From an uncultured virus (IMG/VR IMGVR_UViG_3300034082_002390) (taxonomy: Duplodnaviria > Heunggongvirae > Uroviricota > Caudoviricetes): 60,650 bases of DNA. Every line of letters starts with the position of its first letter. Positions within the stretch are counted from its first letter, which is position 1. The notes beneath the pieces are model-generated. The model saw nothing but the letters and a program-made list of their open reading frames with translations. It had not been told where the DNA came from and ran no database searches. Below, one piece after another: positions 5,522 to 31,997 of this stretch. The stretch lies in the IMG/VR virus record IMGVR_UViG_3300034082_002390; one strand, given 5' to 3'. Both the position numbers and the translations under genes were made by a program.

Positions 5522-5844
5522 TTCACTCGAAAACTTTCTCCACAGCCACAACGGTCACGTTCATTTGGATTGCTAAATTCAAATCCCTCATTTAGTCCGT
5601 TGCGCACAAAATCAATAACTGTTCCGTCAAGATACGGCTTGTTTTTGGGATCTATAAAAATTCTCACACCATTGCTGTCATAATGTTGAACACAGTGCAA
5701 ATGAGGATTGTCCACGTATTCCAACACATAGGCAAGGCCCGAACAACCAGTAGTGCGGACGCCAACTTGTATGCCCAGGCCTGATCCACGCTTGGCCAAA
5801 GATGTTTTAATTTTGCAAGCTGCCTTGTCAGTTATTGAAATCAT
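5518..5844 (-). CDS. iscA: Fe-S cluster assembly A-type carrier IscA
   Basis: TTGCSGLAY, F.NPN, CGCGESF motifs. Confidence 0.95.
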   Translation of the reverse strand: MISITDKAACKIKTSLAKRGSGLGIQVGVRTTGCSGLAYVLEYVDNPHLHCVQHYDSNGVRIFIDPKNKPYLDGTVIDFVRNGLNEGFEFSNPNERDRCGCGESFRVK

Positions 5845-6221
5845 CAGTGTTTGCTTCTGTAATCGGCCACTGCGGCCTTGATAGCATCTTCTGCTAGAAT
5901 ACTACAATGTATCTTGACTGGGGGAAGGGCTAGTTCTTCGGCGATTTGGGAATTTTTGATTGATCCTGCTTCGTCGAGTGTTTTTCCTTTGACCCATTCT
6001 GTAACGAGGCTTGAGCTCGCGATAGCCGATCCGCAGCCATACGTTTTAAATTTTGCATCTGTAATAACACCTGTAACATGGTCAACCTTTATCTGTAGTT
6101 TCATTACATCACCGCAAGCAGGTGCACCAACCATGCCAGTGCCCACAGTATCATCAATATCCATTTTGCCCACATTGCGTGGGTTTTCGTAATGATCAAC
6201 TACTTTTTCACTGTAAGCCAT
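5844..6221 (-). CDS. iscU: Fe-S cluster scaffold IscU
   Basis: YSEKVVDHYENPRNVG, GAPACGDVMKLQI, FKTYGCGSAIASSS, LPPVKIHCSILAEDA. Confidence 0.97.
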   Translation of the reverse strand: MAYSEKVVDHYENPRNVGKMDIDDTVGTGMVGAPACGDVMKLQIKVDHVTGVITDAKFKTYGCGSAIASSSLVTEWVKGKTLDEAGSIKNSQIAEELALPPVKIHCSILAEDAIKAAVADYRSKH

Positions 6222-6236
6222 TGTGCTCTCCTGTTA

Positions 6237-6641
6237 TTAGTTACTGTTAAATGTTTGAGTAAACATTCGTCCGCGATAGTTAAATGTAACTATTTCACCT
6301 TGTTGAATTTGAACAGGAGTAAATCGGCACACTTGTCTTTGTTCTATTCTATTTGAATCTCGCCCAACTTCATTGCCAATGGCGCCGCCTATCAATGCTC
6401 CAATCACAGTGCCTGCCACTTGATCATTTCGATTGCTACCAAGTGTGCTGCCTAGCAATCCTCCAGCCACGGCTCCAATGGTACCAGAGCCTGTGTTGCT
6501 TTCGCGATAAAATTCCTGAACATGACATTGTTGTTGTTGCACAGTGACAAATCTTGGTTGCACGTTTACCACATAGACATCTTGTGCTGTTGCCAGTGAT
6601 GCAGATACCAATAATGACAATGCTAAAAGTATTTTTTTCAT
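6237..6641 (-). CDS. Exported glycine-zipper 2TM protein
   Basis: Signal peptide MKKILLALSLLVSASLATA; GAVAGGLLGSTLG and GALIGGAIGNEVG. Confidence 0.8.
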   Translation of the reverse strand: MKKILLALSLLVSASLATAQDVYVVNVQPRFVTVQQQQCHVQEFYRESNTGSGTIGAVAGGLLGSTLGSNRNDQVAGTVIGALIGGAIGNEVGRDSNRIEQRQVCRFTPVQIQQGEIVTFNYRGRMFTQTFNSN

Positions 6642-6671
6642 AACGTTTCCTTTAAAAGGCTGCTAGCTACA

Positions 6672-6700
6672 AGTATACTACCTGCCGACTACAAAGTCAA
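6672..6700 (-). promoter_or_regulatory. sigma70-type promoter for the glycine-zipper/iscU/iscA operon
   Basis: TTGACT-17 nt-TATACT on the minus strand. Confidence 0.7.
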
Positions 6701-6732
6701 CCATCTTGGGCGACAATCAGTATGTGTATTTA

Positions 6733-7680
6733 CTACTTGGGTCGTTTGGATTTTTGTACTGGGTGAATCATTATTGATTTGCCAGCAACTGGGCAAAATT
6801 TGCATTGAGGTATTACGTTATCAATGTTGGCCAAAAACTCACGCCCAGACTGGTCAAATTCATCAATGGTAAGGGGCCGGTAGCTGTGTAACAATTCCCG
6901 GTCCGAATCTGACAATGTTAGTTTGTGTTGAAGGTCAAATTCTGGCATCAGTGCCACTGGGCCGCATTTGTACAACGCACCGCGTATGAAATGATAATTT
7001 TTGTTCGTAGCAAACCCACATCCGTCATGTGCCTGAATTGGGTTGTTGTTGCAAACTGAATAACTACCGTCAGGATGTTTGGTTATTGCACTTGGCAAAA
7101 ACTCATTCTGAATCCAGACTGGAATTCTAATCTTATTCTCATTATCTACGTAACAGTAGTCGGCATTGAAGGGATTTAAATCACGCCCAATAAGAACCTC
7201 AGCCCGACCTTGCAGAAATTGTCTAATTATTTTATCAATGTCGTCAAATTCTGCCATGTTGTGTAAACTGACACCTAGCCAGTTGCCCATGGTGTGATTG
7301 GATCGAGTGTGTAGGTTACGCACTGCTGAATACTCACTTTTGTTTTTTAAAAACAATTGATATAACCCACTGACATGATTGAGACGATACCCGTTTGTTA
7401 ATATTTGTACGTTGCAATCCCAAATAGCATTGATTCCAGTTACCCACTTGATTAGAGATGGGTTTAGCAAAGGCTCGCCACCGAGTATGACTATTTGCTC
7501 AGGTTTGATTTTGGTGGCCCATTTAGAGTAAGTCTCAGCATAGTCATCCCAGTTTTGCCAACCTTTGAAATCAAAGTCGTTGAAACGATTACAACTTGGA
7601 CAAGCCAAGTTGCAAACATTTGTGATATAAAATTCTAATTTGGGTATTATTACCCGGTCTGCGTCAAGATTTAGCTGCAC
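6733..7680 (-). CDS. Radical SAM protein
   Basis: CNLACPSC (CxxxCxxC), GGEPLL, TNG, C-terminal Cys cluster (CGF, CGP, CKFCP). Confidence 0.88.
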   Translation of the reverse strand: MQLNLDADRVIIPKLEFYITNVCNLACPSCNRFNDFDFKGWQNWDDYAETYSKWATKIKPEQIVILGGEPLLNPSLIKWVTGINAIWDCNVQILTNGYRLNHVSGLYQLFLKNKSEYSAVRNLHTRSNHTMGNWLGVSLHNMAEFDDIDKIIRQFLQGRAEVLIGRDLNPFNADYCYVDNENKIRIPVWIQNEFLPSAITKHPDGSYSVCNNNPIQAHDGCGFATNKNYHFIRGALYKCGPVALMPEFDLQHKLTLSDSDRELLHSYRPLTIDEFDQSGREFLANIDNVIPQCKFCPVAGKSIMIHPVQKSKRPK

Positions 7681-12858: not shown

Positions 12859-14310
12859 TTATGATTGTTTGATTTGTCCCAGCAATTGTTTGAGCTTGCT
12901 GCTCTGCACTTCGGCTGCAACTTTGGGTGCTTGTTCCCAGGCCGGTGTGCCTGTTGCCTTTTCCCAGGTTGATTTACTACTAGCATTGCCTTCAACTTCA
13001 TCGGCGGCCTTGGCTTGACTCTTGGCCTTGATAGACTCGTATATGCTGGGTTTATTAAAAAATCCGCCACTGTTTTCTTGGTCGCCGCCTTCGTCTGTAA
13101 TGCGCATGGTTTCAATGTTGTATTCCAAATCAATTTTTTGTCCTACACCTGTTGAACTACGACTCTTCATACACTGAATCTGATACTTGCCACGTTCTTT
13201 CATGGCACGTGACGTAAAGATGCCAAACACATTATCTGCTGTGTTAATCTTTGAAATGCCGCCTGAAATGTGTGAGTGATCAAACTCAATTTCTTCCACC
13301 GCACTACGATTCAACTGACTTGCTGTGACCAGCAATATGCCAAGTTCCTTGGCCAAGTTTCGTAATTCCTCACTTACATATTTGTCCTTGACAAACAAGT
13401 CGTTGGGACTGACCTTTGCACTCACTGGCATCAACAAATCAAGATAGTCAACCATCACAAAGTCCACTTTGATACCAGTTTGCACTTGTACTTCTTTCAA
13501 GTAACTGCGCACATCATTGATGTTGCTTTGTGCTGGCAAACCTTTTACTCGATACTGCCCCGACTTCTTCCCCACCATTTTAACCTTGAGTTCGGTGGTA
13601 TCAATGTCTTTGCGAATGTCTTTGGTGCTCATACTGGTCAACATAGCGTCAGTTCTCAGAGAAGTTAACTCTTCTGACAGTTCCAGCGTGATGTACACAC
13701 CGCTGAGTCCTTGTTGCAACCAGTTCAGCGCAATGTTCATCATCACAAGTGACTTGCCTGATCCAGAGCCACCTGCAAAAATATTCAACTCGCCTCGACT
13801 AAAGCCACCGTACAACAATCTGTCTAGTTGTGGCCAACCTGTGCTAACTTGGCCGCCTGAGTTGAAATACTTTTCAATACGGGCCTTGGGGTCAGCAAAA
13901 TAATCTGTACCCATGTCCTTGGTAAGCGAAATTTGCACTGCGTCTTTGATTAGTTTCTCAACAGGATCAAAGTCTCCTTTCTCAAGCATGTCTGCTGCCT
14001 TGAGAATCGCACGTTCTAACTCTTGTCGTTTGGTAAATGATTCAAATTCTGCCATGAACCATTCAAAATGCCCCTCGTTCAAGTCGGGCACATGTGCCAA
14101 CGTTACATTGCATGCGGCTGCAATTTGTGATCGGTCAGGTAATGTCTTGTATGTGTTGCTGTGTTCTTTAATAAACTCTGCGGCTTTGCGCAAACTTTTA
14201 TCAAAGTTTTCTGGGTTGTAGATATTTTGTACGCGAACATAACTGGCCGCATCCTCTAACATCATTTCTAAAAATAATTTTTGGACATCAAGTCCGTACT
14301 CTTTTAACAA
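12859..14310 (-). CDS. Replicative DnaB-family helicase (T4 gp41-like)
   Basis: GGSGSGKS Walker A, VMVDYLDL Walker B, TASQLNR, MKSRS. Confidence 0.93.
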   Translation of the reverse strand: MLKEYGLDVQKLFLEMMLEDAASYVRVQNIYNPENFDKSLRKAAEFIKEHSNTYKTLPDRSQIAAACNVTLAHVPDLNEGHFEWFMAEFESFTKRQELERAILKAADMLEKGDFDPVEKLIKDAVQISLTKDMGTDYFADPKARIEKYFNSGGQVSTGWPQLDRLLYGGFSRGELNIFAGGSGSGKSLVMMNIALNWLQQGLSGVYITLELSEELTSLRTDAMLTSMSTKDIRKDIDTTELKVKMVGKKSGQYRVKGLPAQSNINDVRSYLKEVQVQTGIKVDFVMVDYLDLLMPVSAKVSPNDLFVKDKYVSEELRNLAKELGILLVTASQLNRSAVEEIEFDHSHISGGISKINTADNVFGIFTSRAMKERGKYQIQCMKSRSSTGVGQKIDLEYNIETMRITDEGGDQENSGGFFNKPSIYESIKAKSQAKAADEVEGNASSKSTWEKATGTPAWEQAPKVAAEVQSSKLKQLLGQIKQS

Positions 14311-14323
14311 GTTGTTTCCTTAA

Positions 14324-14956
14324 TCAAGTCAACCCAAGCACATGGGTATCTATTATTGTTTTTACTTCCTGATAATTTGTGCACAAATTAGAGTAATTTA
14401 TGTCTGCATGCACAAAATTAAAATTCTGTTGAACTACAGTTTTTCCCAAAATTAGTTGTGGAACATTGTTCAAATATAAATCGTAGTCAAATATATCGTA
14501 TGGTATCTGGTGTGATTTTAAATCAGCAATAACTTGATGATACCGACGATGTTCAGCAAGCCAAGAATTTAAAAAATTCATGTTGACGGTAAATTCAACT
14601 GGTTCAACTGTTTCAAATCGCGAGTAGTGAAACTTATCAACCACCTGCTCAGCATAGTAAAGACTGGCACAACAATCAACTAGATTATTTCGTGTTGTTA
14701 CTACTAACTGCATTGGTACTTCTGCAAGCAACTTAATTATGTCAACAGCAGTGGTATTGTGTTGATATAAATTGGTGCTCAATAGTTTCATCACTGAAGA
14801 TTTTTGTCCGGCTGCCCAGGTATAGACATCATGTGCAATTTCGTCTCCACAGAACGGTTCGTTTAAATTTTTAAAATTAAACAATCTAGCCAATGTAAGC
14901 TGTAGCACCGTTGTGGCAGTTCTTGGCAATCCAAAGATTAGTATGCTAGCTGTCAT
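14324..14956 (-). CDS. Sulfotransferase-like P-loop protein
   Basis: N-terminal FGLPRTATTVL, NEPF, R.NLVD...S (PAPS-binding-like motifs). Confidence 0.55.
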   Translation of the reverse strand: MTASILIFGLPRTATTVLQLTLARLFNFKNLNEPFCGDEIAHDVYTWAAGQKSSVMKLLSTNLYQHNTTAVDIIKLLAEVPMQLVVTTRNNLVDCCASLYYAEQVVDKFHYSRFETVEPVEFTVNMNFLNSWLAEHRRYHQVIADLKSHQIPYDIFDYDLYLNNVPQLILGKTVVQQNFNFVHADINYSNLCTNYQEVKTIIDTHVLGLT

Positions 14957-15941
14957 GCTGTGTCAACTTTTTCAACAGTTGCTTTTTGCGCATTTCAATT
15001 TTGATCTTGCTAGTTTCTCTAGCTTGCATGATCATTACCAATGTTGCCAGCTTACCATGTGCTATTACAGAATCGTTTACATCTTTGCAATTGCCCCAGT
15101 TGGGAATACTAACTGCCCAGCCCAGTTCCACTGCACGGTCAATCAAGTCAATCCCGGCCTTGTCCTGGTCAGGGATCACAGTGACTTGTTTACCCAAATT
15201 GCGTATAAGCCTTGCCTGTGTATCACTGATTGTGCTGTGCATCACAGCCAAGCCCGATATAGATAGTGCACAAAACACACCTTCCATGACCAGCACATGT
15301 TCCCAATCAGAATGTTGTAAGTCAGTACCAAATACATATCCCGGTTGTGTATGATTGATGTACTTAGGGATTTTGTTATCCAGCATCCTAGCACTCCACC
15401 CAACTACTGTGTTATCCCATGTAAAGGGAATGATCACTTGTGGGCGTGTCCAGTGGATGTTGTCGTTTTGCACTGCTGTTAAAAACGGGTAATCATCTGG
15501 TGCACATCTTGATCTCAGGTACTCCCACTGAACCTGATGCTCGGGGCTCACTGGTTCGGCATAGGGAGGAAACTCGTCAAACTCTTCAAATTTGATGTCT
15601 GCTAGATTGTTAACTATGCGTTGGCGATCTTCCAGTATGCCATGTATATTTTTATACTTCAAACTTTCAAGATTCAAATGCTCAATCTCGCTGTCGGGCA
15701 CTCCCAGCCAACTCAACAGTTTCTTGGCCTTGTATGATACGTTGCGTCCCAGAATAAAACTGGCTTTGTAGCCACAGTTGAAACAATGATAACTCCAGCC
15801 TTGCTCATTAGCTTTGAGCCCACCACGTTGACGCTTGTCTTGTTTTTCCCCGTTATGGGAACAACAAACTGCATTGAAACTAATCCAGCCCGATGGAGTT
15901 TGCTTTCTCTTACCTGGCAAGTATTGGACTATATCTATCAT
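14946..15941 (-). CDS. DNA primase (gp61-like: zinc finger plus TOPRIM)
   Basis: AVCC..YHCFNCG zinc finger, VMEG, IPDQDKAG, KDVND; start refined to ATG 15941, 6 nt after a -10 box. Confidence 0.88.
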   Translation of the reverse strand: MIDIVQYLPGKRKQTPSGWISFNAVCCSHNGEKQDKRQRGGLKANEQGWSYHCFNCGYKASFILGRNVSYKAKKLLSWLGVPDSEIEHLNLESLKYKNIHGILEDRQRIVNNLADIKFEEFDEFPPYAEPVSPEHQVQWEYLRSRCAPDDYPFLTAVQNDNIHWTRPQVIIPFTWDNTVVGWSARMLDNKIPKYINHTQPGYVFGTDLQHSDWEHVLVMEGVFCALSISGLAVMHSTISDTQARLIRNLGKQVTVIPDQDKAGIDLIDRAVELGWAVSIPNWGNCKDVNDSVIAHGKLATLVMIMQARETSKIKIEMRKKQLLKKLTQHDS

Positions 15942-15947
15942 CAAACA

Positions 15948-15976
15948 AGTATAACACACTTGCCCCGGGAAATCAA
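15948..15976 (-). promoter_or_regulatory. sigma70-type promoter of the primase-helicase operon (leaderless)
   Basis: TTGATT-17 nt-TATACT with extended TGn; ATG 6 nt downstream. Confidence 0.7.
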
Positions 15977-15991: not shown

Positions 15992-16777
15992 TTATCTATA
16001 TGTGATGAGATCAACGTTGCCGTTGTTGATTCCAAGTTCCAATCGCAAATAAGGATGATATCCTTCAACGTTGATGCCGCGACGATCAGTAGCATTGGTA
16101 AATGTTAATTCGGACACAGTATTGCCAGATTGCAAGTCTTCAAAGGGAATAGAATACCATTCCACAGTGTTTGAAGTTGCATCTGTTGCACCCTGAACTG
16201 CAACTGTCCCAGTAAAATCAACTGGATCCAGTTGGAATGTGGTCAAGCTAGAGCCATCGGTGGTCAAGGTACTGGTGTAGTAAATTGAGCTGTCAGGTGC
16301 TTGACTGGGAATAGTCAGCACTTGACTTGCAACAAACGCTGGGAATACAGAATTAACAATGTTGATGTCTCCCCTGGCTCCACTGTAGTCATCAGTAAAC
16401 ACTGCTTGGTTTAACACCCCCGATGAAATTTCAATGCTCCAGCTTGCTGGTTGTGCTTGAAAATACGCTGTGTCCGCAGCTGGTATGGTTACTTTGGATC
16501 GACCCAGCGTGTTGCTGAGACTTACAAGTTCTTTTGCGTACAAAAGATTTTGCCCATCCTGACTGATAATACGGAACGTGAAAGTCGCTCCGGTGATGTT
16601 CACGGGCTTTTGATCTTGATTTTGGAACTGGAACAATATCACATTGTCCACCCCAAGGTTAAGGGTTAATGATTTTGCGTACACTGGCTTCCATCTCCGA
16701 TCGAAATAGGCCCCCGTAACGTCAACCAAAAGTACGGTCTGAATTTGCTGATATAAATAGGCTGTGGTTGCATACAT
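15992..16777 (-). CDS. Hypothetical beta-rich protein, probably virion-associated
   Basis: MYATTAY start with GGAG SD and TAAATA at 16793-16798. Confidence 0.65.
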   Translation of the reverse strand: MYATTAYLYQQIQTVLLVDVTGAYFDRRWKPVYAKSLTLNLGVDNVILFQFQNQDQKPVNITGATFTFRIISQDGQNLLYAKELVSLSNTLGRSKVTIPAADTAYFQAQPASWSIEISSGVLNQAVFTDDYSGARGDINIVNSVFPAFVASQVLTIPSQAPDSSIYYTSTLTTDGSSLTTFQLDPVDFTGTVAVQGATDATSNTVEWYSIPFEDLQSGNTVSELTFTNATDRRGINVEGYHPYLRLELGINNGNVDLITYR

Positions 16778-16797
16778 AGGAATCTCCAACAATATTT

Positions 16798-17175
16798 ATG
16801 GGCGAAAATGTCTTTAAGACTCTAACAGAGCGATACCCTTTTATCACGCTATGCGTGTACGCAGACGCTGAATATCTGGGTGTGGTACAAAACCGAGACG
16901 AGGTGGTTACCACCATCTATGACTTTGGTATGATAGTTGATCCAGTTCAGAAAAAAGTGTTTCTTGAGCTGGCATCTGTCTGGTGGTGGGAAAGCAATCG
17001 TAGCATACCTATCAATATATTTCTTAAAAATGAGTGGGATCCGTTCCGTTTGTATCTAAGAACGTTTGCCAACAAGGATCTTGAAATCTTGCATGGGCCA
17101 GTGTGCAGCCTTAACGATATCTCTCGTAGAAAAAGCAAACGCAGATCCATTACTCTGGTCAAACGCCCAGATTAA
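16798..17175 (+). CDS. Hypothetical protein
   Basis: 125 aa, WWWESNRSIPI motif; fills the gap between minus-strand genes. Confidence 0.7.
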   Translation: MGENVFKTLTERYPFITLCVYADAEYLGVVQNRDEVVTTIYDFGMIVDPVQKKVFLELASVWWWESNRSIPINIFLKNEWDPFRLYLRTFANKDLEILHGPVCSLNDISRRKSKRRSITLVKRPD

Positions 17176-17186
17176 CAACGCTACCA

Positions 17187-17747
17187 TCAATTAAGCAGAT
17201 TCATGTGCAAAGCCACCAAGGCTGCATAACTCACTGCATGCGACTTTTTAAAAGTATACCCTCGGGTAGAGTTGCCGTCCCAAACTTCATCAAAAATTTG
17301 ATCCCAGCTTTTGTTTTGTAAATGTGCTTTGCCCGGGCGTATCAACGAGATAAATGCTGCCATTCTAGGGATACTGTCCGGTTTCATGCTCTGTAATAAA
17401 TTGGTATAATTTCCCACGTGCACCAGCTGCTGACTCCATTCGGGATCTAGCCATAGCCTAGTCCACGGGGGTGTGGCTGTTAACATTTGTTGATAGTGCG
17501 CAGGGCTGTTTATCAATTGATACACACCCATGTTTAAAAAATCTATTTTAAAATACCCACGGTGTTCAGCTTCCTCATATTCAATTGCCGAACACTGGTT
17601 CACAGGATCATAAGGTATGTCTGTTACATACACCCCGGAGTTGTGACGTCGCACCTGCTCCTGCACAACTTGCGCGGCTGGAGTGTGCTGAATCAAGGAC
17701 AATATCTTGTTTCTGTCAGCAAAATCAATGTCAATGTCTGCGCTCAT
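17187..17747 (-). CDS. Miniature DNA polymerase III alpha (DnaE-like) palm/finger core
   Basis: DIDIDF, HNSGVYV, GYFKIDFL, ISLIRPG, YTFKKSHAVSYA, collinear with DnaE motifs. Confidence 0.8.
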   Translation of the reverse strand: MSADIDIDFADRNKILSLIQHTPAAQVVQEQVRRHNSGVYVTDIPYDPVNQCSAIEYEEAEHRGYFKIDFLNMGVYQLINSPAHYQQMLTATPPWTRLWLDPEWSQQLVHVGNYTNLLQSMKPDSIPRMAAFISLIRPGKAHLQNKSWDQIFDEVWDGNSTRGYTFKKSHAVSYAALVALHMNLLN

Positions 17748-18742
17748 GGTGTCTTATTAAAGTACTGGTGTATTTGACTGCTGTGAGTAAACCACTGTGT
17801 TTGCTCAAATGGCAACTCTTTGTTGTAATGTAGTTCTAGTTTAGCACTTAGATAACTTTCTTGCAAGAGGTCCAGGCCAGATATCACAAAACTTTCACCA
17901 GTTACTATACTGTTAAACAAAAAGTCACACTCGGTCTTGGTGTACTTGTAGGGCTGTCGTTTTAGGAACTCGTTGTGTACAGATATAAATTCATGACTGG
18001 GAACAAAGTCAAACCCAAAAGTTTGGGCAACTTTTTTTAATTGTTCTGCAAACAAATCAGTTTTGTAAAAACTTGTGTATGGAATTACAAAAACATTACC
18101 GTTTGTGTTGTAATTCATTTGCTGTTGTATTAACATTGGCCATGACTGATCTGGGATCTTGAATGCCAGCTTAAAAAATTCTCGTAGAATATATCTAGGA
18201 CAGTCTGGCTGCTCACTGGTCAGTGTCAACAATTTCAAGTTGTGTGTGGTCATACACTCGGTTTGTATCCAGGCCGGCAACTGATTGAATTCATCTACAG
18301 TAGCAATATCTGGCCAGGATTCATCTTTGACTGCTTGATAACTATCTCGAAGTTGATTTTTAAAAAACTTGTCAATAATGTTATCCAGGGCGGGTTTGTA
18401 ACTAGAGTTGTTGAGCTTGTGGAATGTGTTTTGTTCCAGCAACTCATTGTCAATGCCAAGCCCGCCTGCTCGCAACAAACATATAGACATCAACGGCAAT
18501 AGGTCATCGGGCAATAGCTGAATTGACAACATGTTGTAGTCATTGGGCAAGATTGATAAATCAGTGTAATGGTGCCCTGACAAAAATTCCACTGGTGATC
18601 CCGGTATGTGCCAGCTGCCATGCGATGATCCTTTTGTATCAAAGGGCGGTCCATTTGTGTCCAGGCCAGCAATAAAGTGATTGCACACATACTCTAGATA
18701 AGCGCCATGGGCACCTGGTTGGAAGTCGATATAAATCATCAC
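17744..18742 (-). CDS. Hypothetical protein, possibly a degenerate P-loop/sulfotransferase fold
   Basis: 332 aa; IDFQPGAHGAYL at the N-terminus. Confidence 0.6.
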   Translation of the reverse strand: MMIYIDFQPGAHGAYLEYVCNHFIAGLDTNGPPFDTKGSSHGSWHIPGSPVEFLSGHHYTDLSILPNDYNMLSIQLLPDDLLPLMSICLLRAGGLGIDNELLEQNTFHKLNNSSYKPALDNIIDKFFKNQLRDSYQAVKDESWPDIATVDEFNQLPAWIQTECMTTHNLKLLTLTSEQPDCPRYILREFFKLAFKIPDQSWPMLIQQQMNYNTNGNVFVIPYTSFYKTDLFAEQLKKVAQTFGFDFVPSHEFISVHNEFLKRQPYKYTKTECDFLFNSIVTGESFVISGLDLLQESYLSAKLELHYNKELPFEQTQWFTHSSQIHQYFNKTP

Positions 18743-19413
18743 CAGCCTGTTTGTTTTAAAATATTTCGCACATAGTCAACTTCATCTGGATTGTCCTTGA
18801 ACTTTTTGCTCCAAAAGTCTGTATCAATGCATGACCATATTATGGCCAATTGACTTGGATTTATACGTGCTAGAAATTCGTTGCCCGAATCACAATTGTA
18901 CAAAATCCAGGCACTAACACGCCCGGTACTCACCGCATAACACAAGGCATTGTCATTGCCATACCGCAAGTAGTCTGCTAGTGGGTTTTGTGTTTTTTCT
19001 TGCCATATCTGGGCTTCTTCAATTGCACGAGTCAATGCATCAGCTATGTTTTCCACACGCAAGTACTCGTTCAAGTACTCGGTATACACTGCATCATTGC
19101 ACCAGTTGTCAATCTTTTTGTTCTGTCTCACAACCCACTCTATAAATCTTGGTGGGTTTACAGCACGAATGGCCTGTATGTGCCGGCCAAACTTTACAAA
19201 CGCACGATAAAACGAACTGCCAGCAAAGTCATCAAATGTTTTGGCCTTGGCAGATCCTTGGGTTATCTCATAGAATCGCAAGTATGCGCGAAGTCCAAGT
19301 TGTACTCCAACTTCTTTCTGCTCTAGAAAGCGTCTCTTTTGTTCACATACGTGCACAGCCAGCGTTTTTTCTTTTACAAAACTACGGCTACAATGTTGGC
19401 AAACAAATGACAT
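18739..19413 (-). CDS. Zinc-finger-containing hypothetical protein
   Basis: MSFVCQHCSRSFVKEKTLAVHVC (C2HC-like); start refined to 19413. Confidence 0.7.
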   Translation of the reverse strand: MSFVCQHCSRSFVKEKTLAVHVCEQKRRFLEQKEVGVQLGLRAYLRFYEITQGSAKAKTFDDFAGSSFYRAFVKFGRHIQAIRAVNPPRFIEWVVRQNKKIDNWCNDAVYTEYLNEYLRVENIADALTRAIEEAQIWQEKTQNPLADYLRYGNDNALCYAVSTGRVSAWILYNCDSGNEFLARINPSQLAIIWSCIDTDFWSKKFKDNPDEVDYVRNILKQTGW

Positions 19414-19452
19414 GTTGTTGGGTGCGTGATCCAGTGTTGATAGTAAGAACAA

Positions 19453-19902
19453 TTACAGTGCTCCGTCAATGCCCATGTCCTTGAGATATGACGATAGTTC
19501 TTTTTTAGAATTAAGCTGACTCATGAGTTCAATTTCATCCATCTTCATATTTGGGTACAACTTCATCAAAAGTTTTTTAACATCGGTGGTGCCTTTGTCT
19601 TTTTTCTTGGGAGAGATCCAATTGTGTGTATGGCATCCTGTATCAGGGCTTACTGCTGTGGCTCCCAGCCATTGCAACTTTGGATGTTTGTTGATAGAGA
19701 AAAAATGTTTGTTGAGATAATGGTTGCAACTTTGTACATAATACTCTTGCAACTCTCTAGGACCTGTAACTTGACTGCTCCACCGTATCATCAAAAAATT
19801 GCTGAACTTCTTGAGTTCGTCAACAGTCAGGCTATCATAGAAGTCTCGATCCTTGGTATCAAGTCTTGCCATCTCGTATCGTATGTTAAGTCTATCGCTC
19901 AC
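19453..19902 (-). CDS. Hypothetical protein, possible clamp-loader small subunit (gp62-like)
   Basis: Size and FLMIRWSS..LQW..WISPKK pattern loosely resemble gp62; replication context. Confidence 0.4.
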   Translation of the reverse strand: MSDRLNIRYEMARLDTKDRDFYDSLTVDELKKFSNFLMIRWSSQVTGPRELQEYYVQSCNHYLNKHFFSINKHPKLQWLGATAVSPDTGCHTHNWISPKKKDKGTTDVKKLLMKLYPNMKMDEIELMSQLNSKKELSSYLKDMGIDGAL

Positions 19903-20134
19903 GACGAACTCCTGTGACCACTGTGTTAAGATTGTTTTTCAAACGAAGAAATTCTTTTTGTAACTTCTCAATTGTTTTTTGTTGTTCCACTAGTTTTTCT
20001 TCCAGGATGTCAATTTTCTGCATTGCAGATTTAAGTGCAGTATCCACAACTGGTTTAACTGGGGCTACCACTCGTTCAGCCGATTCATCTTGTTTGTATT
20101 GATCCATTATATCACCATGCTTGATTGTAGTCAA
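19892..20134 (-). CDS. Small coiled-coil protein
   Basis: 80 aa with heptad pattern. Confidence 0.55.
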   Translation of the reverse strand: MTTIKHGDIMDQYKQDESAERVVAPVKPVVDTALKSAMQKIDILEEKLVEQQKTIEKLQKEFLRLKNNLNTVVTGVRRER

Positions 20135-20612
20135 CTATTTCACAGTTGCGACTTACGTCTTTGACAAAATACACACATTCAGGTTCTATGTTGTCATTCA
20201 ACGGCACACACAGCATTTGGCCATTCTTGAGTTTGGGTGCGTACCAAGTGACTTCATGATATACGTCAACAATCTCGATTGTGGGGAAGCTGGGTCGAAA
20301 TCCAGTTAGTGGATTGAATTGAAATACTCTAAACCCCCTGTCGTTGATTGCTGTCAACGGCAGAACCTCTAGGTCTCCCAGGTCTGGCTCACCAATTAGA
20401 ATTTGCCAATCCATGGGCATTTTAATTGTGTACTCGCCAATTTTGAGAACCAATGCTGGAGCATTAAAGCTTTCAAGAAAGATGAGTGGAATATAGTGAT
20501 AATCAACATTGTTTGGATCCGAGTTGTCTAGAATTGAAAATCGCATGTCGTCGACTTCTTCAGGCAGGGTGTCCAAATCGTATGCAATGTTGTTTAAAGT
20601 TAGTATTCTCAT
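20112..20612 (-). CDS. Hypothetical protein
   Basis: 166 aa directly downstream of a consensus sigma70 promoter. Confidence 0.75.
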   Translation of the reverse strand: MRILTLNNIAYDLDTLPEEVDDMRFSILDNSDPNNVDYHYIPLIFLESFNAPALVLKIGEYTIKMPMDWQILIGEPDLGDLEVLPLTAINDRGFRVFQFNPLTGFRPSFPTIEIVDVYHEVTWYAPKLKNGQMLCVPLNDNIEPECVYFVKDVSRNCEIVDYNQAW

Positions 20613-20619
20613 AAAGTAT

Positions 20620-20648
20620 ATTATATATGGTTATTGTCTGTTAGTCAA
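20620..20648 (-). promoter_or_regulatory. sigma70-type promoter (leaderless)
   Basis: TTGACT-17 nt-TATAAT; ATG 7 nt downstream. Confidence 0.8.
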
Positions 20649-20676: not shown

Positions 20677-21327
20677 TCAAAATAGCTGTACTGCATGTGC
20701 AATCAATGTGTCTGGACTTGCAGAAAGATTGTCTACCGATTGCTGTGTAAACAAATCAAATGCCACCGACAGTCTTACTGGTTCAGTCACAATGCCGACT
20801 TCGTGATCGGCCCAGCAGGGAAAAATTGTGATGCCGCCAAGGCTGTTTTTGATGACTTCGTTACGAGCAGGATAATGAAACGTGGTTGATGTGTTGTCTG
20901 TCAAACTGATAAATCCACTCAAGTGATAATGAGGAGAATGCCAATGCATGCTCAAACTTACCCCAGCTTCTAGGATATTGATCCATCCCGATATCCAAAG
21001 AGATTTCTCTGGCTCAAACTCATATGCTTGTGAAAAATCATGATAGGCTCTGGCAATATCTTGCTTGAACCTGTGTACACTGGGCATGTCAAACTTGAAA
21101 AAATTATAACTGTCCCAGGGCACATGTCCCGGTGGAATATTTTGCCAATCCCAGTTGTGAGGTCTAACATACTGTGCATAGTTGTCATTCACAAACTGGT
21201 GAATATCCGCAAAGTCTGTGGTGCTGACTTGATCTTTCCAAATAGGCACTCGCATATCCAATGCAAAAGGGCCCGGCATTTGTATGCGTCTAACAATTAG
21301 CCTAGGATCTACTTGATGGTCATCCAC
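20677..21327 (-). CDS. Putative 2OG-Fe(II) oxygenase
   Basis: WINIL..HWH..LSGFISL..IFPCWADHEV..RLSVAFD (HxH..H..R jelly-roll pattern). Confidence 0.7.
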   Translation of the reverse strand: MDDHQVDPRLIVRRIQMPGPFALDMRVPIWKDQVSTTDFADIHQFVNDNYAQYVRPHNWDWQNIPPGHVPWDSYNFFKFDMPSVHRFKQDIARAYHDFSQAYEFEPEKSLWISGWINILEAGVSLSMHWHSPHYHLSGFISLTDNTSTTFHYPARNEVIKNSLGGITIFPCWADHEVGIVTEPVRLSVAFDLFTQQSVDNLSASPDTLIAHAVQLF

Positions 21328-22778
21328 TCTAGTTTCTCCTGTGTAAACGGATAATTGGCTTCTTTATAAAATTGTTTACGCTTGGTAAGGTGGCGTTTTG
21401 CAAACTTGCACGTTGACGTGATGTCCCAGATTTGGACATGGTCTTTGTCTTCTGCTTTTCTAATGCCTCGCCCAATACTTTGTATAACGCGGACAAAGCT
21501 TTTTCCGGGCTCCAAAAGAACCAAATTAAAAATACGGGGGATATTAATACCCACAGCGGCCACACCGTAAGTCGCCACAATAATCTTGCCAGTAGATTCT
21601 GCCACTTGATCATAATGTTCTTGCCTTTCTGTTCCTTTGGTTGCACCTGATACAAACACTGCCTGATCTCCCAGTCTCTTGACTAGTTCATGACCCGATG
21701 CCACTCGATCCACAAGCACCAGGGTGTTGCCGGTTTCATTGACCCTGGCAACCAAATTGGATATAGTATCCAATCTTCCAGACTCTTCAAGCAAGTATTT
21801 TAACTCGCTTTGATAATCTTTGTATTCCACATGGTCCACAAGTTGCACAACATTCACGTGACATTGAGCCAATACTCCCATGTCTTGCAAGGTGCTGGCA
21901 GCAAGTTTGCTGATCACTGGACCAAGACTAACATGCAATGCTTCTGATTCAAACTTTTCTTTTGGCACAGTGCCAGTTAGACCCCAGCGAATTGGGATAT
22001 GAGCCATTACTCCAGTCAATAGAGTTTTCAATGCATCAGCTTTGGCCATGTGCACTTCGTCGACCATGACACAAACCACATCCTCAATAAAGTCTTGAAT
22101 TGTCACTTCCCCGACTCCAGCCTTGGTGTTCTTTAACAACACATTCAAGCTTTGCCAAGTGCAAATGGTATGTGTTCGACCATGTTCTTTTCTATCACCA
22201 AAGTACACGCCCACATCTAGTCCTAGATTGATATAGTCCTTTTCAGTTTGTCGCACAAGATCTTTGTTGGGCACAATAACAATACTGCGCCCGTAATCTT
22301 GTACACTCCAGCTCAAGGCAGCTGTCATGATTGTCTTGCCTGCGCCAGTGGCCACTTCCTGAATACATTGAGGATTATTTAAAAAATCATTAATGATATC
22401 AATTTGATAGTCACGCAACACAATTGGTTGTCCTTCTGCCACATGACCCTTGGGCCACAAGTGATTGACAAATGTGTTTTCAGAAGTCAGTGCAAATTCA
22501 AATGTGGTTTTGTAATTGCGTTGATCATCTAGTTCAACATCATATCCTTCAGCCTCAAGCACCGGGATAATCTCTGGCAGCAAGTTTACAAATGTGCTGC
22601 CACCCATTTGAAAATAGCTGACCTTGCCATCCCATCGACCCAGTCGCACAGCCGGAAGATATCTTGCATACGGAATGTCATATTTGAATTTGTTAACTAG
22701 ACGCTTGCGAGTGTCTAGGTCAAGTCCTTCAATTTTAACATTGACCTCGTCGTTTAGTATAAGGGTTGCTTGTTTCAT
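21309..22778 (-). CDS. uvsW: SF2 DNA helicase UvsW-like
   Basis: LRDYQ, ATGAGKT, DEVH, GLTGT, QSIGRGIR. Confidence 0.9.
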   Translation of the reverse strand: MKQATLILNDEVNVKIEGLDLDTRKRLVNKFKYDIPYARYLPAVRLGRWDGKVSYFQMGGSTFVNLLPEIIPVLEAEGYDVELDDQRNYKTTFEFALTSENTFVNHLWPKGHVAEGQPIVLRDYQIDIINDFLNNPQCIQEVATGAGKTIMTAALSWSVQDYGRSIVIVPNKDLVRQTEKDYINLGLDVGVYFGDRKEHGRTHTICTWQSLNVLLKNTKAGVGEVTIQDFIEDVVCVMVDEVHMAKADALKTLLTGVMAHIPIRWGLTGTVPKEKFESEALHVSLGPVISKLAASTLQDMGVLAQCHVNVVQLVDHVEYKDYQSELKYLLEESGRLDTISNLVARVNETGNTLVLVDRVASGHELVKRLGDQAVFVSGATKGTERQEHYDQVAESTGKIIVATYGVAAVGINIPRIFNLVLLEPGKSFVRVIQSIGRGIRKAEDKDHVQIWDITSTCKFAKRHLTKRKQFYKEANYPFTQEKLEWMTIK

Positions 22779-23632
22779 TTAAAATATATGTTTGTTATGA
22801 GTTGTCTGCGTCTAATGTTATCAATTATTTCTTCTCTATTGCCAATGTTGATCAATTTTGCCACCTTGTATCTGTATGGATGTGCTAGTGGATGATTAAT
22901 GCTGTCAATTCCCTGTTTGATAAAAAAGTCCTGGCAAGATTCAAAATAATTCTGCATGCGATCTAGATCCGGTACAGCATCACCAAATGTAACAACAAAG
23001 TCAGCCGAGTACTTACGGAATGGCTGAAATGCCAATTCGCCAATATACTCGTCGTTGTCAACCGACAAGTCCTCAAGAGTCTTGCCAATTTCAACGTAGT
23101 TTAAATACACAGCGCCAAACTCAGTAGCAGTTGTACCGTACTGCACCATCTGATCAATAGTCAAACTTGATAACTTGGGCATGCCATACCAAGTGCAAAC
23201 AAACCTTGGAATTGACTGTCTGCTGGCACTCTCGGCGCGATGCACCAGTGTGTTTAAATCAGCCAATGCCTGCTGTACTGTTGCTGGCGCTGTGTTCCAC
23301 CAGTCGCTTGTTTGACTATCCAATAGTCCGTGATAGATTTCAAAAATGTTGTGCAAATAATTCAACAAATCTTGATCATCAATTGTGGTGAACTCTCTGT
23401 TTACAATAGTCTCATATTTATTAATAACAGCAATACACTCACGTAACCGAGATTCAGCTTGTGCTCTTTCAGAGTTGCCACTATCAAATCCGTAAAATCG
23501 TCTAGCATCATCCATGGGCCATTTGTTGCGTAAATGCATTTTTCGCAACCATAGATCTGCTACAGGCGTGGGCTCTACAGCAAACTCCATTTCAAAATCA
23601 TTGTCAAATTCAATTACTAACACAGTGGTCAT
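22775..23632 (-). CDS. Hypothetical protein
   Basis: 285 aa, translationally coupled to uvsW. Confidence 0.7.
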   Translation of the reverse strand: MTTVLVIEFDNDFEMEFAVEPTPVADLWLRKMHLRNKWPMDDARRFYGFDSGNSERAQAESRLRECIAVINKYETIVNREFTTIDDQDLLNYLHNIFEIYHGLLDSQTSDWWNTAPATVQQALADLNTLVHRAESASRQSIPRFVCTWYGMPKLSSLTIDQMVQYGTTATEFGAVYLNYVEIGKTLEDLSVDNDEYIGELAFQPFRKYSADFVVTFGDAVPDLDRMQNYFESCQDFFIKQGIDSINHPLAHPYRYKVAKLINIGNREEIIDNIRRRQLITNIYFK

Positions 23633-26612: not shown

Positions 26613-27341
26613 TTACAATCTCCAATGTTGCAATATATATTTATCCTGAACTTCGTGTGGCTTAGGGGTTCCGTGAAACACAATAACCCGCACCTTGGGA
26701 TCAATCCTGCAACCTGTACCGGGGCTGTGATATTTACGTGTTTTCATGTTTTGACCGCCGTCGTTCATTTGCCATCTCCAGCTTTGTATCATGTCTGCAT
26801 CAAACAAATTGCGGTGACGCTCGTCAATCACAGCTGAAAGAAAATCCTGGTCCCCCGGGTATCGTGCAGTTACTGTAGATGGCCCTTGACTCATAAATGA
26901 TTCCCAAACATTGCTAAATCTAGTGGTATCCCAAAGCATGACACTGGAGTTAATACCAGCCCAGGCAGGACGTTGCAGATACCTAAAATCACGAATAGTA
27001 GAAAAATGACTTGGGGGAGCTTGTAACATCCAATCAATATTGCCAGTAATCACAACGTCAAGATCAAAATACAACAATTGGCCCGAAAAGTGATCAGGGT
27101 TAAACATCTGTATTTTGTACCACCAAGCACTTTTTGGTCCAGCTATGCCAGGCCAAGTGTCTAGCGTGTGCTTGATAAAAGGATCAGGAACCTCTCGTTC
27201 TTCTTCTGTGAATACATGCAGTTTTACAGGAAACGTTAAATTTCGACACAGCATGGCATAAAGTTTTTGAACATACGTCCATTGATAAGCGTCACCATGA
27301 ATCACACATGCACAGTTTACTGTATAAGTTTGGTTTATCAT
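26613..27341 (-). CDS. GT-A fold glycosyltransferase
   Basis: WWYKIQMF, YFDLDVVI (DxD), NSSVMLW, GDQDFL, VFHGTPKP. Confidence 0.8.
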   Translation of the reverse strand: MINQTYTVNCACVIHGDAYQWTYVQKLYAMLCRNLTFPVKLHVFTEEEREVPDPFIKHTLDTWPGIAGPKSAWWYKIQMFNPDHFSGQLLYFDLDVVITGNIDWMLQAPPSHFSTIRDFRYLQRPAWAGINSSVMLWDTTRFSNVWESFMSQGPSTVTARYPGDQDFLSAVIDERHRNLFDADMIQSWRWQMNDGGQNMKTRKYHSPGTGCRIDPKVRVIVFHGTPKPHEVQDKYILQHWRL

Positions 27342-27383
27342 AAGGATTAATATTTACCGTTATGTACATACATAAATATCTTT

Positions 27384-28142
27384 ATGAAAATCGTACTTGT
27401 TACAGGTGGGTTTGATCCCATACACTCCGGACATCTTGCTTACTTCCAGTCAGCAAAACAACTAGGTGACAAACTCATCGTTGGGCTCAATAGTGATGCC
27501 TGGCTAGAACGCAAGAAAGGTCGTGCGTTCATGCCCTGGTCAGAACGTGCTGCCATTGTTGCTGCCTTGCATGTGGTTGATCGTGTGATTGATTTTGACG
27601 ACCAGGATGGCACAGCAATCGATGCTATTCGTAAAGCCAAAGAGATATTTCCCAATCATGAGATTGTGTTTGCCAATGGTGGAGACAGAACTCAAGACAA
27701 CATACCCGAGATGGTGTTCGATGATGTGGAATTTGTGTTTGGTGTGGGTGGAGAAGATAAGAAAAACAGTTCTAGCTGGATTCTTGAAGACTGGAAGAAA
27801 CCCCGAACAGATCGCGCCTGGGGGTACTATCGTGTGCTACACGAAGTAGGCGGCCACGTCAAGCTAAAAGAACTCACAGTAAATCCCAAGACATGTTTAA
27901 GCATGCAACGACACGAAAAACGTGCAGAGTTTTGGTTTGTAGCCGAGGGTGAAGCCACAGTGTACACAGTGGATCCACACAGCACAGATCGTGAGCTGGC
28001 ATCAAGCCCTGCCCGGCATCAGTCAACTTGGATTAGACTAAATGAATGGCACCAGTTGTGCAACGAAACTAACGAGCCGTTAAAGCTGATCGAAATCCAA
28101 TATGGCGAAAATTGTGTTGAAGAGGACATCGAACGCAAATGA
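27384..28142 (+). CDS. Cytidylyltransferase fused to a mannose-6-phosphate-isomerase-type cupin
   Basis: TGGFDPIHSGH (HxGH), GLNSD, FANGGDR, SSS; then R.WGYY, LSMQRHEKRAEFW, IEIQYG..EEDIER. Confidence 0.88.
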   Translation: MKIVLVTGGFDPIHSGHLAYFQSAKQLGDKLIVGLNSDAWLERKKGRAFMPWSERAAIVAALHVVDRVIDFDDQDGTAIDAIRKAKEIFPNHEIVFANGGDRTQDNIPEMVFDDVEFVFGVGGEDKKNSSSWILEDWKKPRTDRAWGYYRVLHEVGGHVKLKELTVNPKTCLSMQRHEKRAEFWFVAEGEATVYTVDPHSTDRELASSPARHQSTWIRLNEWHQLCNETNEPLKLIEIQYGENCVEEDIERK

Positions 28143-28819
28143 AGCCAATACCAGTGTTTGTTGGTTATGACCCCAGAGAGGCAGTGGCTTATCACACCTG
28201 CGCTAATTCAATTATACGGCAGGCATCAAAACCAGTTGCAATAATTCCGTTGGCATTGAATCTGTTTGAGGACTACACAGAAACACACACTGACGGAAGC
28301 AATCAGTTTATCTACAGCAGATTTCTTGTGCCGCATCTAATGGACTATGCTGGGTGGGCTATCTTTATTGATGGCGACATGATAGTGCGCGACGACATTG
28401 TCAAGTTGTGGCAGTTACAAGATCCCATGCACGATGTCATGGTTGTTAAACACAATTACAAAACTCGAATGCCGGTAAAATATCTTGGCGCCAAGAATGA
28501 AGACTATCCACGTAAAAATTGGAGTAGTGTTATTTTGTGGAACTGCAACAGTGAGTCAAACAAACAACTCACTCCAGATTTTGTACAGCAGGCCACTGGT
28601 GCTGCATTACACCGGTTTACATGGTTAGAAGATCAGCATGTTGGTGAGTTGCCAGTGGAGTGGAATTGGTTACCTGATGAATACGGGCCAAACCCTGATG
28701 CCAAGCTCTTGCATTATACCCTGGGCACTCCATGCTTTCACGAGTTTGCCACTACGCCACAAGGTGATGAGTGGCACCGGGAGCACATGCTAGCCGATTA
28801 TTGTTTACAAAAATCATGA
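28139..28819 (+). CDS. Glycosyltransferase (GT8-like)
   Basis: VFVGYDPRE, FIYSRFLVP, FIDGDM, YPRKNWSS, EWNWL, HYTLGTP. Confidence 0.8.
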   Translation: MKPIPVFVGYDPREAVAYHTCANSIIRQASKPVAIIPLALNLFEDYTETHTDGSNQFIYSRFLVPHLMDYAGWAIFIDGDMIVRDDIVKLWQLQDPMHDVMVVKHNYKTRMPVKYLGAKNEDYPRKNWSSVILWNCNSESNKQLTPDFVQQATGAALHRFTWLEDQHVGELPVEWNWLPDEYGPNPDAKLLHYTLGTPCFHEFATTPQGDEWHREHMLADYCLQKS

Positions 28820-29757
28820 CTCAACCGTTGTCAATTGTAGCCTACAGATCTTGTTTGCCATCAAAAAATAAAAAACAAGAAAAAGTTGATGCACTGATTA
28901 AATTCTGCCTGGGCGTACATGCCAACGGGGACAATGCGTACATGCATGAAGGCCAGGACACAGTGCCATGCGATGTTGCAGTAATACTGGGATGGGTTCA
29001 CGAGGATTCAAAAAATTCACCTCACTTGCAAATGCGCAAAAGAGTGGCTGCTGAACAAGCGGCAAAAAATAAACATTTGGTCATAATTGACAGCAACTTA
29101 TTTCTTTACAAAAATACCAAAAACCCATTGAACTATTTGCGTTATAGTTTCAATGGAGTTTTTCCCAACACTGGAATATACTGCGATTCTAATCCAACAC
29201 TGGATCGATGGTTTGACTTTGAGTCACAACTTGATTTAAAGTTGCAGCCTTATCGTGTCAACGGAAATCACATACTGTTGTGCTTGCAAAGGCAAGGTGG
29301 ATGGAGCATGGGAGGGATTGATGTGCAGTCTTGGATTGCCAGCACTGTGTCTTCTATTCGTATGCACAGCAGTCGCCCCATTAGGTTACGAGCTCATCCA
29401 GGTGATAAAACTCAGCATGACTTTGGTCGAATAATTAATCAATTTCCCAATGTACATGTGTCCAGCCCAGGCAGTTCACTACTAGACGATCTAGCCAATT
29501 GCTGGGCTGTGGTCAATCACAATTCCAGTCCAGCAGTTGGTGCAGCCATTGAAGGTTATCCAATTTTTATCACCGACCCAGAACGCAGTCAATGCAAAGA
29601 AATTGCCAACACCGACTTTGCCAAAATTGAAGATCCAGTGCTGTACGATCGACAACTGTGGCTAACCAGACTGTCAATGTTTCATTGGAATTTTAACGAG
29701 GTTCAGTCTGGGCAATGCTGGGCTCACATGCGCCGTTACTTGCCCGGTATTCCATAA
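28816..29757 (+). CDS. Capsule-biosynthesis-like (GT-B-like) protein
   Basis: IRLRAHP, WAVVNHNSSPAVGAAIEGYP; start refined by ATGA overlap. Confidence 0.6.
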   Translation: MTQPLSIVAYRSCLPSKNKKQEKVDALIKFCLGVHANGDNAYMHEGQDTVPCDVAVILGWVHEDSKNSPHLQMRKRVAAEQAAKNKHLVIIDSNLFLYKNTKNPLNYLRYSFNGVFPNTGIYCDSNPTLDRWFDFESQLDLKLQPYRVNGNHILLCLQRQGGWSMGGIDVQSWIASTVSSIRMHSSRPIRLRAHPGDKTQHDFGRIINQFPNVHVSSPGSSLLDDLANCWAVVNHNSSPAVGAAIEGYPIFITDPERSQCKEIANTDFAKIEDPVLYDRQLWLTRLSMFHWNFNEVQSGQCWAHMRRYLPGIP

Positions 29758-30427: not shown

Positions 30428-30473
30428 GTTGTACTTAGTAACCACACCGGCAGTCTAGTCTATAAATATCTAC

Positions 30474-31959: not shown

Positions 31960-31997
31960 GCGTTTGCCTGTTAAGTATAATAAAGTATTTACACACA

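Follow-up and report, generated by a model that had tools for sequence, protein, structure and literature searches.

The stretch of DNA considered here, 60,650 nt of an uncultured virus (IMG/VR record IMGVR_UViG_3300034082_002390; "the window" below means the whole of this stretch), carries on its minus strand a short gene whose product resembles one part of the catalytic core of the alpha subunit of bacterial DNA polymerase III (Pol III alpha). This gene and its protein, both called the C-half in what follows, belong to a family of split and minimal Pol III alpha enzymes of jumbo phages that was already described computationally in 2021 (Iyer et al., PMC7824862). The gene is an uninterrupted open reading frame (ORF) at positions 17187-17747, stop codon counted, and its product (P0001) has 186 amino acids (aa). 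The first-pass annotation, made from the sequence alone, had reported an intact ORF here; its length and integrity stand, and the strand had to be corrected to minus, the plus-strand reading of 17187-17747 having many stops. Five motifs had been noted in it in the order in which they occur in DnaE, and all five are present as read: DIDIDF at residues 4-9, HNSGVYV at 35-41, GYFKIDFL at 64-71, IRPG at 136-139 and FKKSHAVSY at 166-174. The features of the gene are as follows.

17187..17747, minus strand: C-half gene, encoding the C-terminal (Mg-binding, trimmed-fingers) subunit of a split minimal Pol III alpha, 186 aa; identified by the ORF, PHROG 11778, profile and model
17724..17738, minus strand: codons of D4-I-D6-I-D8, aligned to D401, D403 and D405 of E. 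coli alpha
17541..17549, minus strand: codons of K67-I-D69, aligned to alpha K553 and D555 (the third catalytic Asp)
17331..17339, minus strand: codons of R137-P138-G139, aligned to alpha RPG 639-641 in the fingers
17238..17252, minus strand: codons of F166-K-K-S-H170, aligned to alpha F756-N-K-S759-H760, of which H760 is the proposed steric gate

The gene is the last of four abutting or overlapping minus-strand ORFs that run from 19902 to 17187, and its ATG overlaps the stop of the ORF upstream (ATGA). In a look-up of RNA evidence no holder was listed for window 16700-19950. Exactly the same protein is encoded by 28 contigs in public data, its 90% identity cluster includes a member on a 344-kb contig, and a 75%-identical relative lies on a 345-kb record (G002) rated 99% complete; because such close relatives of the C-half sit on contigs of this size, the source of the window is taken to be an uncultured jumbo phage. 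The proteins of the uncultured relatives are 72-78% identical to the C-half. Among 50,697 phage records, tblastn with the C-half found 96 with a homologue, all of them jumbo phages, at a query coverage of at least 80% and an identity of 34-43%. The carriers include RaK2-like Klebsiella phages, 121Q-like coliphages, PA5oct-like Pseudomonas phages, Atu_ph07, Phosso and XacN1, and in some of these records the homologue is annotated as DnaE-like DNA polymerase III alpha.

The family assignment of the protein is clear from PHROG 11778 ("DNA polymerase"; E 9.2e-54), on which residues 3-185 cover profile positions 7-191 of 197. The relation to the cellular enzyme is more remote and is reached by a family profile only, not by a single-sequence search. 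A phmmer search of the PDB with the single C-half protein gave no match at E<=10, and a Pfam scan of the protein gave no match to PF07733 and one sub-threshold match, to DNA_pol3_finger PF17657 (E 0.047; 13.5 bits against a cut-off of 22). The profile built from 83 full-length relatives (alignment A1) reached nine Pol III alpha/DnaE chains in the PDB at E values from 7.7e-6 to 1.5e-4, the E. coli protein at 7.7e-6. No PolC chain in the PDB was reached by this profile at E<=1, which is a weak hint, from sequence comparison, that the phage form has its affinity with the DnaE branch. On E. coli alpha the HMMER alignment falls into three blocks, residues 5-21 on 400-418, 55-140 on 539-641 and 151-180 on 739-769, and it is this profile alignment that yields the residue pairs listed above, both the catalytic ones (D4, D6, D8, K67 and D69) and those of the two fingers motifs. 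D401, D403 and D555 belong to the active site of E. coli alpha, H760 has been proposed to act as a steric gate that excludes ribonucleotides, and the S759/H760 region lies at the incoming deoxynucleoside triphosphate, or dNTP (PMC8485763). Because the profile alignment covers them, four of the five motif equivalences to DnaE proposed in the first-pass annotation can be regarded as established. The fifth, of HNSGVYV with HAGGVVI, lies outside the HMMER alignment and is based only on the whole-model structural alignment.

The AlphaFold2 model of the C-half has a mean predicted local distance difference test (pLDDT) of 96.6 and a predicted template modelling score of 0.89. In a Foldseek search with this model ranks 1-14 were all C-family polymerases (best E 6.7e-4, probability 1.00). 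VIA-align placed it on PolC (3f2b; Z 9.5, root-mean-square deviation 3.3 Å, 183 aligned residues), on Taq Pol III alpha (3e0d; Z 9.3, chain 460-833) and on the E. coli enzyme (2hnh; Z 8.6, chain 399-776, 181 aligned), while the best unrelated fold scored Z 3.6. A structure prediction compared with Pol III alpha had been suggested as a check, and its outcome (Z 8.6-9.5, C-family only) is that, in the model, the C-half has the fold of the second half of the Pol III alpha palm together with trimmed fingers. The whole 186-aa protein maps inside alpha 399-776, and the PHP domain is absent. Because the chain ends near alpha ~776 there is no HhH, clamp motif or OB domain either, and because it starts at the DxD strand (alpha ~399) the first half of the palm, with GRGS, is missing; no G[RK]GS motif occurs in the ORF. 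The lack of PHP, HhH, OB and the GRGS part of the palm had been stated correctly from the sequence. The description of the protein as a miniature DnaE core has to be given up: the C-half alone corresponds to half of the catalytic core, not to a complete one.

The other half is encoded elsewhere in the related genomes. In Atu_ph07 the 177-aa protein gp316, annotated as a Pol III alpha subunit by Attai et al. 2018 (PMC6102473), has the GRGS segment at its C-terminal end and stops just before the point at which the C-half begins. Homologues of this N-terminal half (the N-half), found with gp316 as the query, occur in three of the four long contigs that carry close relatives of the C-half (E 1e-28 to 4e-24). 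G002 has its N-half gene at 29.2 kb and its C-half gene at ~125 kb. The N-half of G002 (P0124, 174 aa) passes the threshold of PF07733 (32.2 bits against a cut-off of 23.9) and aligns to E. coli alpha 327-391. Its model (pLDDT 73.8) matches alpha 271-393 with Z 7.7 over 105 aligned residues and residues 304-413 of Mycobacterium tuberculosis DnaE1 with Z 9.7 (root-mean-square deviation 2.8, 95 aligned); ranks 1-14 are again all C-family polymerases, and the next row has Z 2.2. The first ~70 residues of the N-half are variable among the phages and modelled with low confidence. Since the N-half matches alpha up to 393 and the C-half matches it from 399, the break in the palm falls between alpha ~393 and ~399. 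The reading of the first-pass annotation, "a split or minimal C-family polymerase", is thus upheld by the separate GRGS gene in the relatives, the fold and the conserved aspartates. In G002 the N-half gene stands far from the C-half, beside unrelated genes; two genes downstream of it (G002 27714-31205) is a 124-aa ORF that looks GroES-like by eye. In Atu_ph07 (240-242 kb) the gene at the same position is annotated as "head morphogenesis", and a clamp loader gene is nearby.

The distribution of the two genes indicates that they belong together. Among the phage records the C-half is found in 96 and the N-half in 93, and the N-half and C-half counts by taxon are 34 and 34 for Escherichia, 11 and 11 for Pseudomonas, 8 and 8 for Salmonella, 8 and 8 for Erwinia, and 10 and 11 for Klebsiella. 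The genes are never adjacent: the distance between them is ~34 kb in RaK2, 44 kb in PA5oct, 183 kb in Atu_ph07 and 224 kb in Phosso. A fused form is known from a metagenomic protein of 375 aa (P0200), of which residues 78-180 match the N-half (E 4e-20) and residues 190-372 the C-half (E 1e-34), the two being joined by a linker of roughly 9 residues. When the G002 N-half (alignment A2) and the window C-half (A1) were modelled as a complex, the interaction prediction score from aligned errors (ipSAE) was 0.92 in three runs and 0.01 for the best control, the contact agreement between runs was at least 97%, the partner pLDDT was 92 and ~160 inter-chain contacts were predicted. The ipSAE mark used is reached by 116 of 157 solved complexes and by 2 of 215 mismatched pairs, counts that are only approximate here, our own alignments having been used. 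The tightest predicted contacts join residues 139-140 of the N-half, just before GRGS, to residues 7-9 of the C-half in the DIDIDF strand, and further tight contacts join N-half 165-167 to C-half 168-172 in the FKKSH helix; in the model these contacts are those of the native palm architecture.

The key residues of the C-half are strongly conserved. Over 85 sequences (84 representatives of 175-235 aa and the query), D4 and D6 are kept in 84 each and D8 in 83, K67 and D69 in all 85, R137 and P138 in 84 each, H170 in 82 and K167 in 79. In alignment A1 K67, D69 and P138 are invariant among the 83 relatives, although identity to the query drops to 29%. A decay of the aspartate motifs, which would have spoken against the first-pass reading, does not occur in these homologues (D4/D6 84/85, D69 85/85). 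The median ratio of nonsynonymous to synonymous substitution rates (dN/dS) is 0.085, with a range of 0.036-0.21, in the 269 of 3240 pairs with 0.05<dS<1.5; the sample consisted of 81 genes, that of the window and those of 80 IMG/VR loci, and the pairs that include the window gene are synonymously saturated. The family is thus under strong purifying selection. It is also large: a search of 1.84 billion cluster representatives with the C-half gave 381 clusters at E<=0.001, and clustering at 90% identity gives at least 7989 clusters for the C-half and at least 7995 for the N-half. Among the 150 representatives listed as matches most have ~180-220 aa or are shorter fragments, and one exceeds 240 aa. 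One longer match of 335 aa includes a helicase C-terminal Pfam domain (75% query coverage) and may be a read-through with the neighbouring helicase gene.

Starting from the observed homology, fold, conservation, split, co-occurrence, gene order and purifying selection, we consider it likely that the C-half is one of two subunits of a split minimal Pol III alpha and that the pair is an active template-directed polymerase. The C-half would supply the second half of the palm with the metal ligands D4, D6 and D69 and with K67, and also the trimmed fingers, made up of the RPG motif and the FKKSH helix with H170 at the place of the steric gate. The N-half, ~175 aa from a gene tens of kilobases away, would supply the first half of the palm with the GRGS/GS loop. 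According to the predicted complex the two may join by completion of a beta-sheet, in which the strand that precedes GRGS is paired with that of DIDIDF, and the assembled heterodimer would be a nucleotidyltransferase of ~360 aa working as a template-directed DNA polymerase. The conserved H170 argues for the use of dNTPs. Because PHP, thumb, HhH, clamp motif and OB domain are absent, such a heterodimer would be distributive and non-proofreading. It would probably carry out short-patch synthesis, that is primer extension, gap filling or repair, beside a family B replicase.

Several observations weigh against an active pair of this kind. The N-half was not found in the 60,650-nt window by tblastn with Atu_ph07 gp316, which gave only matches with E>=0.18, and a scan of the window in six frames for G[RK]GS returned four matches, none in a DnaE-like context. 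The partner ORF anticipated in the first-pass annotation is therefore represented by the ~175-aa gene of close relatives and by none in the window. The best tblastn match to the N-half, at window 20571-20630, spans stop codons upstream of an unrelated ORF and was rejected. Neither the N-half nor PF07733 was found in the nearest record (G001, 80 kb), which is uninformative on the N-half content of that phage because G001 is a fragment; the one of the four long relatives without an N-half match is G005, of 133 kb and 39% complete. The C-half is present in three more phage records than the N-half, and for the fused form there is just one sequence, on a contig of 2415 bp; scans of viral and metagenome contigs yielded no relatives of it. 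The score of the predicted complex may reflect likeness to, or the model's memory of, known proteins, since single-chain Pol III alpha structures have been solved. Alpha 419-538 has as its counterpart in the C-half only 33 residues, modelled as a tight beta-hairpin with strands at 22-28 and 31-40; this stretch of alpha presumably contains the thumb. In the fingers ten residues replace alpha 642-738, so that ~87 residues are deleted. Having neither thumb nor HhH nor OB domain, such an enzyme might be unable to hold DNA. Finally, full-text literature searches found no biochemical or experimental work on any member of the family.

The C-half gene stands within a replication module of T4 type, which the first-pass annotation had recognized and which is made up of the primase, the DnaB/gp41-like helicase, the DNA helicase, UvsY, UvsX and a gp32-like single-stranded DNA-binding protein.

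12859-14310, minus strand: DnaB/gp41-like helicase, from the PHROG 47/PHROG 19 scan of the primase-helicase stretch
14324-14956, minus strand: 210-aa ORF in the primase-helicase interval, with a weak Sulfotransfer_3 match (E 0.0017)
14946-15959, minus strand: gp61-like primase, from the same PHROG 47/PHROG 19 scan
16798..17175, plus strand: small convergent ORF of 125 aa, PHROG 11637, 11 bases from the C-half stop
17744-18742, minus strand: 332-aa ORF directly upstream of the C-half, its stop overlapping the C-half start; no Pfam or PHROG match
21309-22778, minus strand: DNA helicase at the upstream boundary of the module (PHROG 16, E 4.7e-75); RaK2 uvsW and the Paride helicase are at the equivalent place
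32834-33286: UvsY
33546-34601: UvsX
34657-35640: gp32-like single-stranded DNA-binding protein

The order DNA helicase, several small ORFs, C-half, small convergent ORF, an ORF of ~270-320 aa, primase, helicase is common to the window, Atu_ph07, RaK2 and Paride, and G002 agrees with it over the helicase-to-primase stretch fetched. The convergent pair of the C-half and the 125-aa ORF is kept in Atu_ph07 (gp073), RaK2 (ORF125w), Paride (Paride_0018) and G002, and in the isolates Atu_ph07, RaK2 and Paride the two genes overlap at their 3' ends. The 332-aa ORF is inserted in the window and is absent at that site in G002; in the protein atlas its matches are phage hypotheticals, and the sulfotransferase-like structural leads fall under the threshold (template modelling score 0.44-0.49). 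Together with the 210-aa ORF it may represent a variable insert in the replication module. As for a family B polymerase, for which a search had been proposed, there is one (PF00136) in each of the relatives G002 and G003 and none in the fragments G001 and G004, and a scan of 67 window ORFs gave no match to a PHROG of this kind. At the site that corresponds to the DnaQ-like exonuclease of RaK2 (ORF117) the window has an ORF, 22775-23632, that shows no similarity to it (E 0.73). Terminase, a 1132-aa tail sheath, tail tube and NrdA genes are found in the remainder of the window. Between the replication genes and UvsY, at 26613-32837 and on both strands, lie two ORFs with glycosyltransferase PHROG matches and a GT2-like ORF by Pfam, as well as an ORF with a heptose kinase/adenylyltransferase PHROG and a 2OG-Fe(II) oxygenase-like ORF. 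At 5844-7680 (minus strand) a NifU-like Fe-S assembly protein, a glycine-zipper membrane protein and a radical SAM protein are encoded beside NrdA. An HNH endonuclease-like ORF at 50654-50998 (plus strand) stands on the opposite strand between the tail sheath and deoxynucleoside monophosphate kinase genes, and may be a homing endonuclease insertion.

The gene order bears on a specific version of the proposal given above, not exclusive of it, in which the enzyme is dedicated to elongating the RNA primers that the gp61-like primase synthesizes, and then passes them to the family B replicase. What makes primer extension attractive is the fixed position of the C-half near the primase, 2-3 genes upstream of those for primase and helicase, in the window as well as in Atu_ph07, RaK2, Paride and G002. 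There is a precedent in the DnaE of B. subtilis, which extends the RNA primers of the primase beside the main replicase PolC (PMC5627055), and the conserved histidine of the proposed steric gate would suit the same role. However, the N-half is encoded remotely and beside unrelated genes, the gene order of the module may be mere inheritance, and the C-half and the primase are not on one transcript because the convergent gene separates them. On balance a function so narrowly defined is conceivable, though the odds are against it. Also rather improbable, in our opinion, is the still more specific picture of one of the smallest natural C-family polymerases, thumb-less, clamp-independent and non-proofreading, that acts as an RNA-primer extender or gap filler and hands over to a family B replicase; we know of no smaller template-directed C-family DNA polymerase.

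Other explanations do without a template-directed pair. The Pol-beta-like fold is also present in CD-NTases and other enzymes that are not polymerases (PMC11646218), and the parts of Pol III alpha that hold DNA are absent or reduced in the C-half (33 residues for alpha 419-538, an end at ~776, ~87 residues of the fingers gone), as would be expected of a non-templated nucleotidyltransferase such as a terminal transferase, a modifier of DNA ends or nucleotides or a maker of signalling nucleotides in phage-host conflict. Against it, the RPG and FKKSH motifs with S169 and H170, which match the dNTP-site and proposed steric-gate residues of alpha, are retained nearly invariant; the structural neighbours of the C-half are solely C-family polymerases and its gene lies within the replication module. 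We hold this explanation to be unlikely. That the 186-aa protein might be a self-sufficient miniature polymerase is suggested by the presence of all three catalytic aspartates and of K67, the equivalent of alpha K553, in one chain, but the chain starts at ~399 and alpha 271-393 with GRGS is lacking from it, while the co-occurrence of the N-half (93 versus 96 records), the existence of a fused form and the ~160 predicted inter-chain contacts all speak for a partner, and polymerization by the C-half alone seems very improbable. The extreme reduction relative to every bacterial Pol III alpha architecture (PMC3919608), and the silence of the literature on the biochemistry of the family, could also be taken to mean an inactive relic or a regulator that has no catalytic role, such as a decoy that engages host replisome proteins. 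The near invariance of the catalytic and dNTP-site residues over 83-85 relatives down to 29% identity is hard to reconcile with such a role, as are the median dN/dS of 0.085 and the thousands of clusters counted for each half, and we give it hardly any credence.

If the split polymerase is indeed active, the lower bound for a C-family polymerase would be set at half a palm per chain and a stub of the fingers, and a second polymerase would have to be recognized beside the family B replicase of T4 type. It would also be useful to enzymology, and to ideas on the origin of Pol III, as a compact scaffold. Were the primer-extending version of the proposal true, these phages would have a counterpart of the division of labour between DnaE and PolC or between Pol alpha and Pol delta, and the enzyme might represent a living model for the core of the ancestral Pol III, a suggestion made by Iyer et al. 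(PMC7824862). The split family is in any case very common in uncultured jumbo phages.

Among the known systems the bacterial enzymes DnaE1, DnaE2, DnaE3 and PolC share with the phage form the Pol-beta-like palm, the three aspartates, the K553 equivalent, the RPG motif and the steric-gate helix. In contrast to them the phage form has its palm split into two genes and has no PHP, HhH, clamp motif, OB or C-terminal domain. Since all bacterial Pol III alpha architectures retain PHP, palm, thumb, fingers and HhH (PMC3919608), it lies far outside the cellular range. As a functional model the DnaE of B. subtilis may be useful by analogy, being a C-family enzyme beside a different main replicase, but it is a full-length single chain, and the corresponding role of the phage protein is putative. 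The Pol X of African swine fever virus, with a palm of the nucleotidyltransferase fold and fingers only and with a role in repair (PMC11646218), is another viral and drastically reduced enzyme of the Pol-beta fold. The analogy is one of outline only, Pol X being of family X and not C, a single chain and of other ancestry, and no sequence or fold match to it was found here. PMC12926913 and PMC11646218 make no mention of the phage mini-form, and the paper on the jumbo phage PaBG (PMC7412058) deals with beta and gamma subunits and not with the split Pol III alpha family.

The closest system is the one that Iyer, Anantharaman, Krishnan, Burroughs and Aravind described in 2021 (Viruses 13:63, PMC7824862) from jumbo phages of group 2.2 (RaK2-like) as a "minimal, split Pol III alpha". 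In that account the N-terminal half is NTP-binding (NTP, nucleoside triphosphate) and the C-terminal half is "Mg2+- and DNA-template-binding", and the split enzyme is suggested to cooperate with a family B polymerase in the synthesis of one strand or in repair. The window agrees with this description in its stand-alone C-terminal subunit of ~190 aa that begins at DxDxD (186 aa and D4-D8 here), and its relatives agree in the distant N-half gene, the family B polymerase and the T4-like/RaK2-like background. The differences are not essential, the window having an extra 332-aa ORF upstream in comparison with G002. Because the concept was published in 2021, the window is to be considered as another member of the family and not as a discovery. 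What the passages of Iyer et al. on this enzyme do not contain, and the present analysis does, is the residue-level mapping with the steric-gate histidine, confident models of the halves, the predicted heterodimer, one fused form, the purifying selection, the abundance of the family and the helicase-to-primase gene order.

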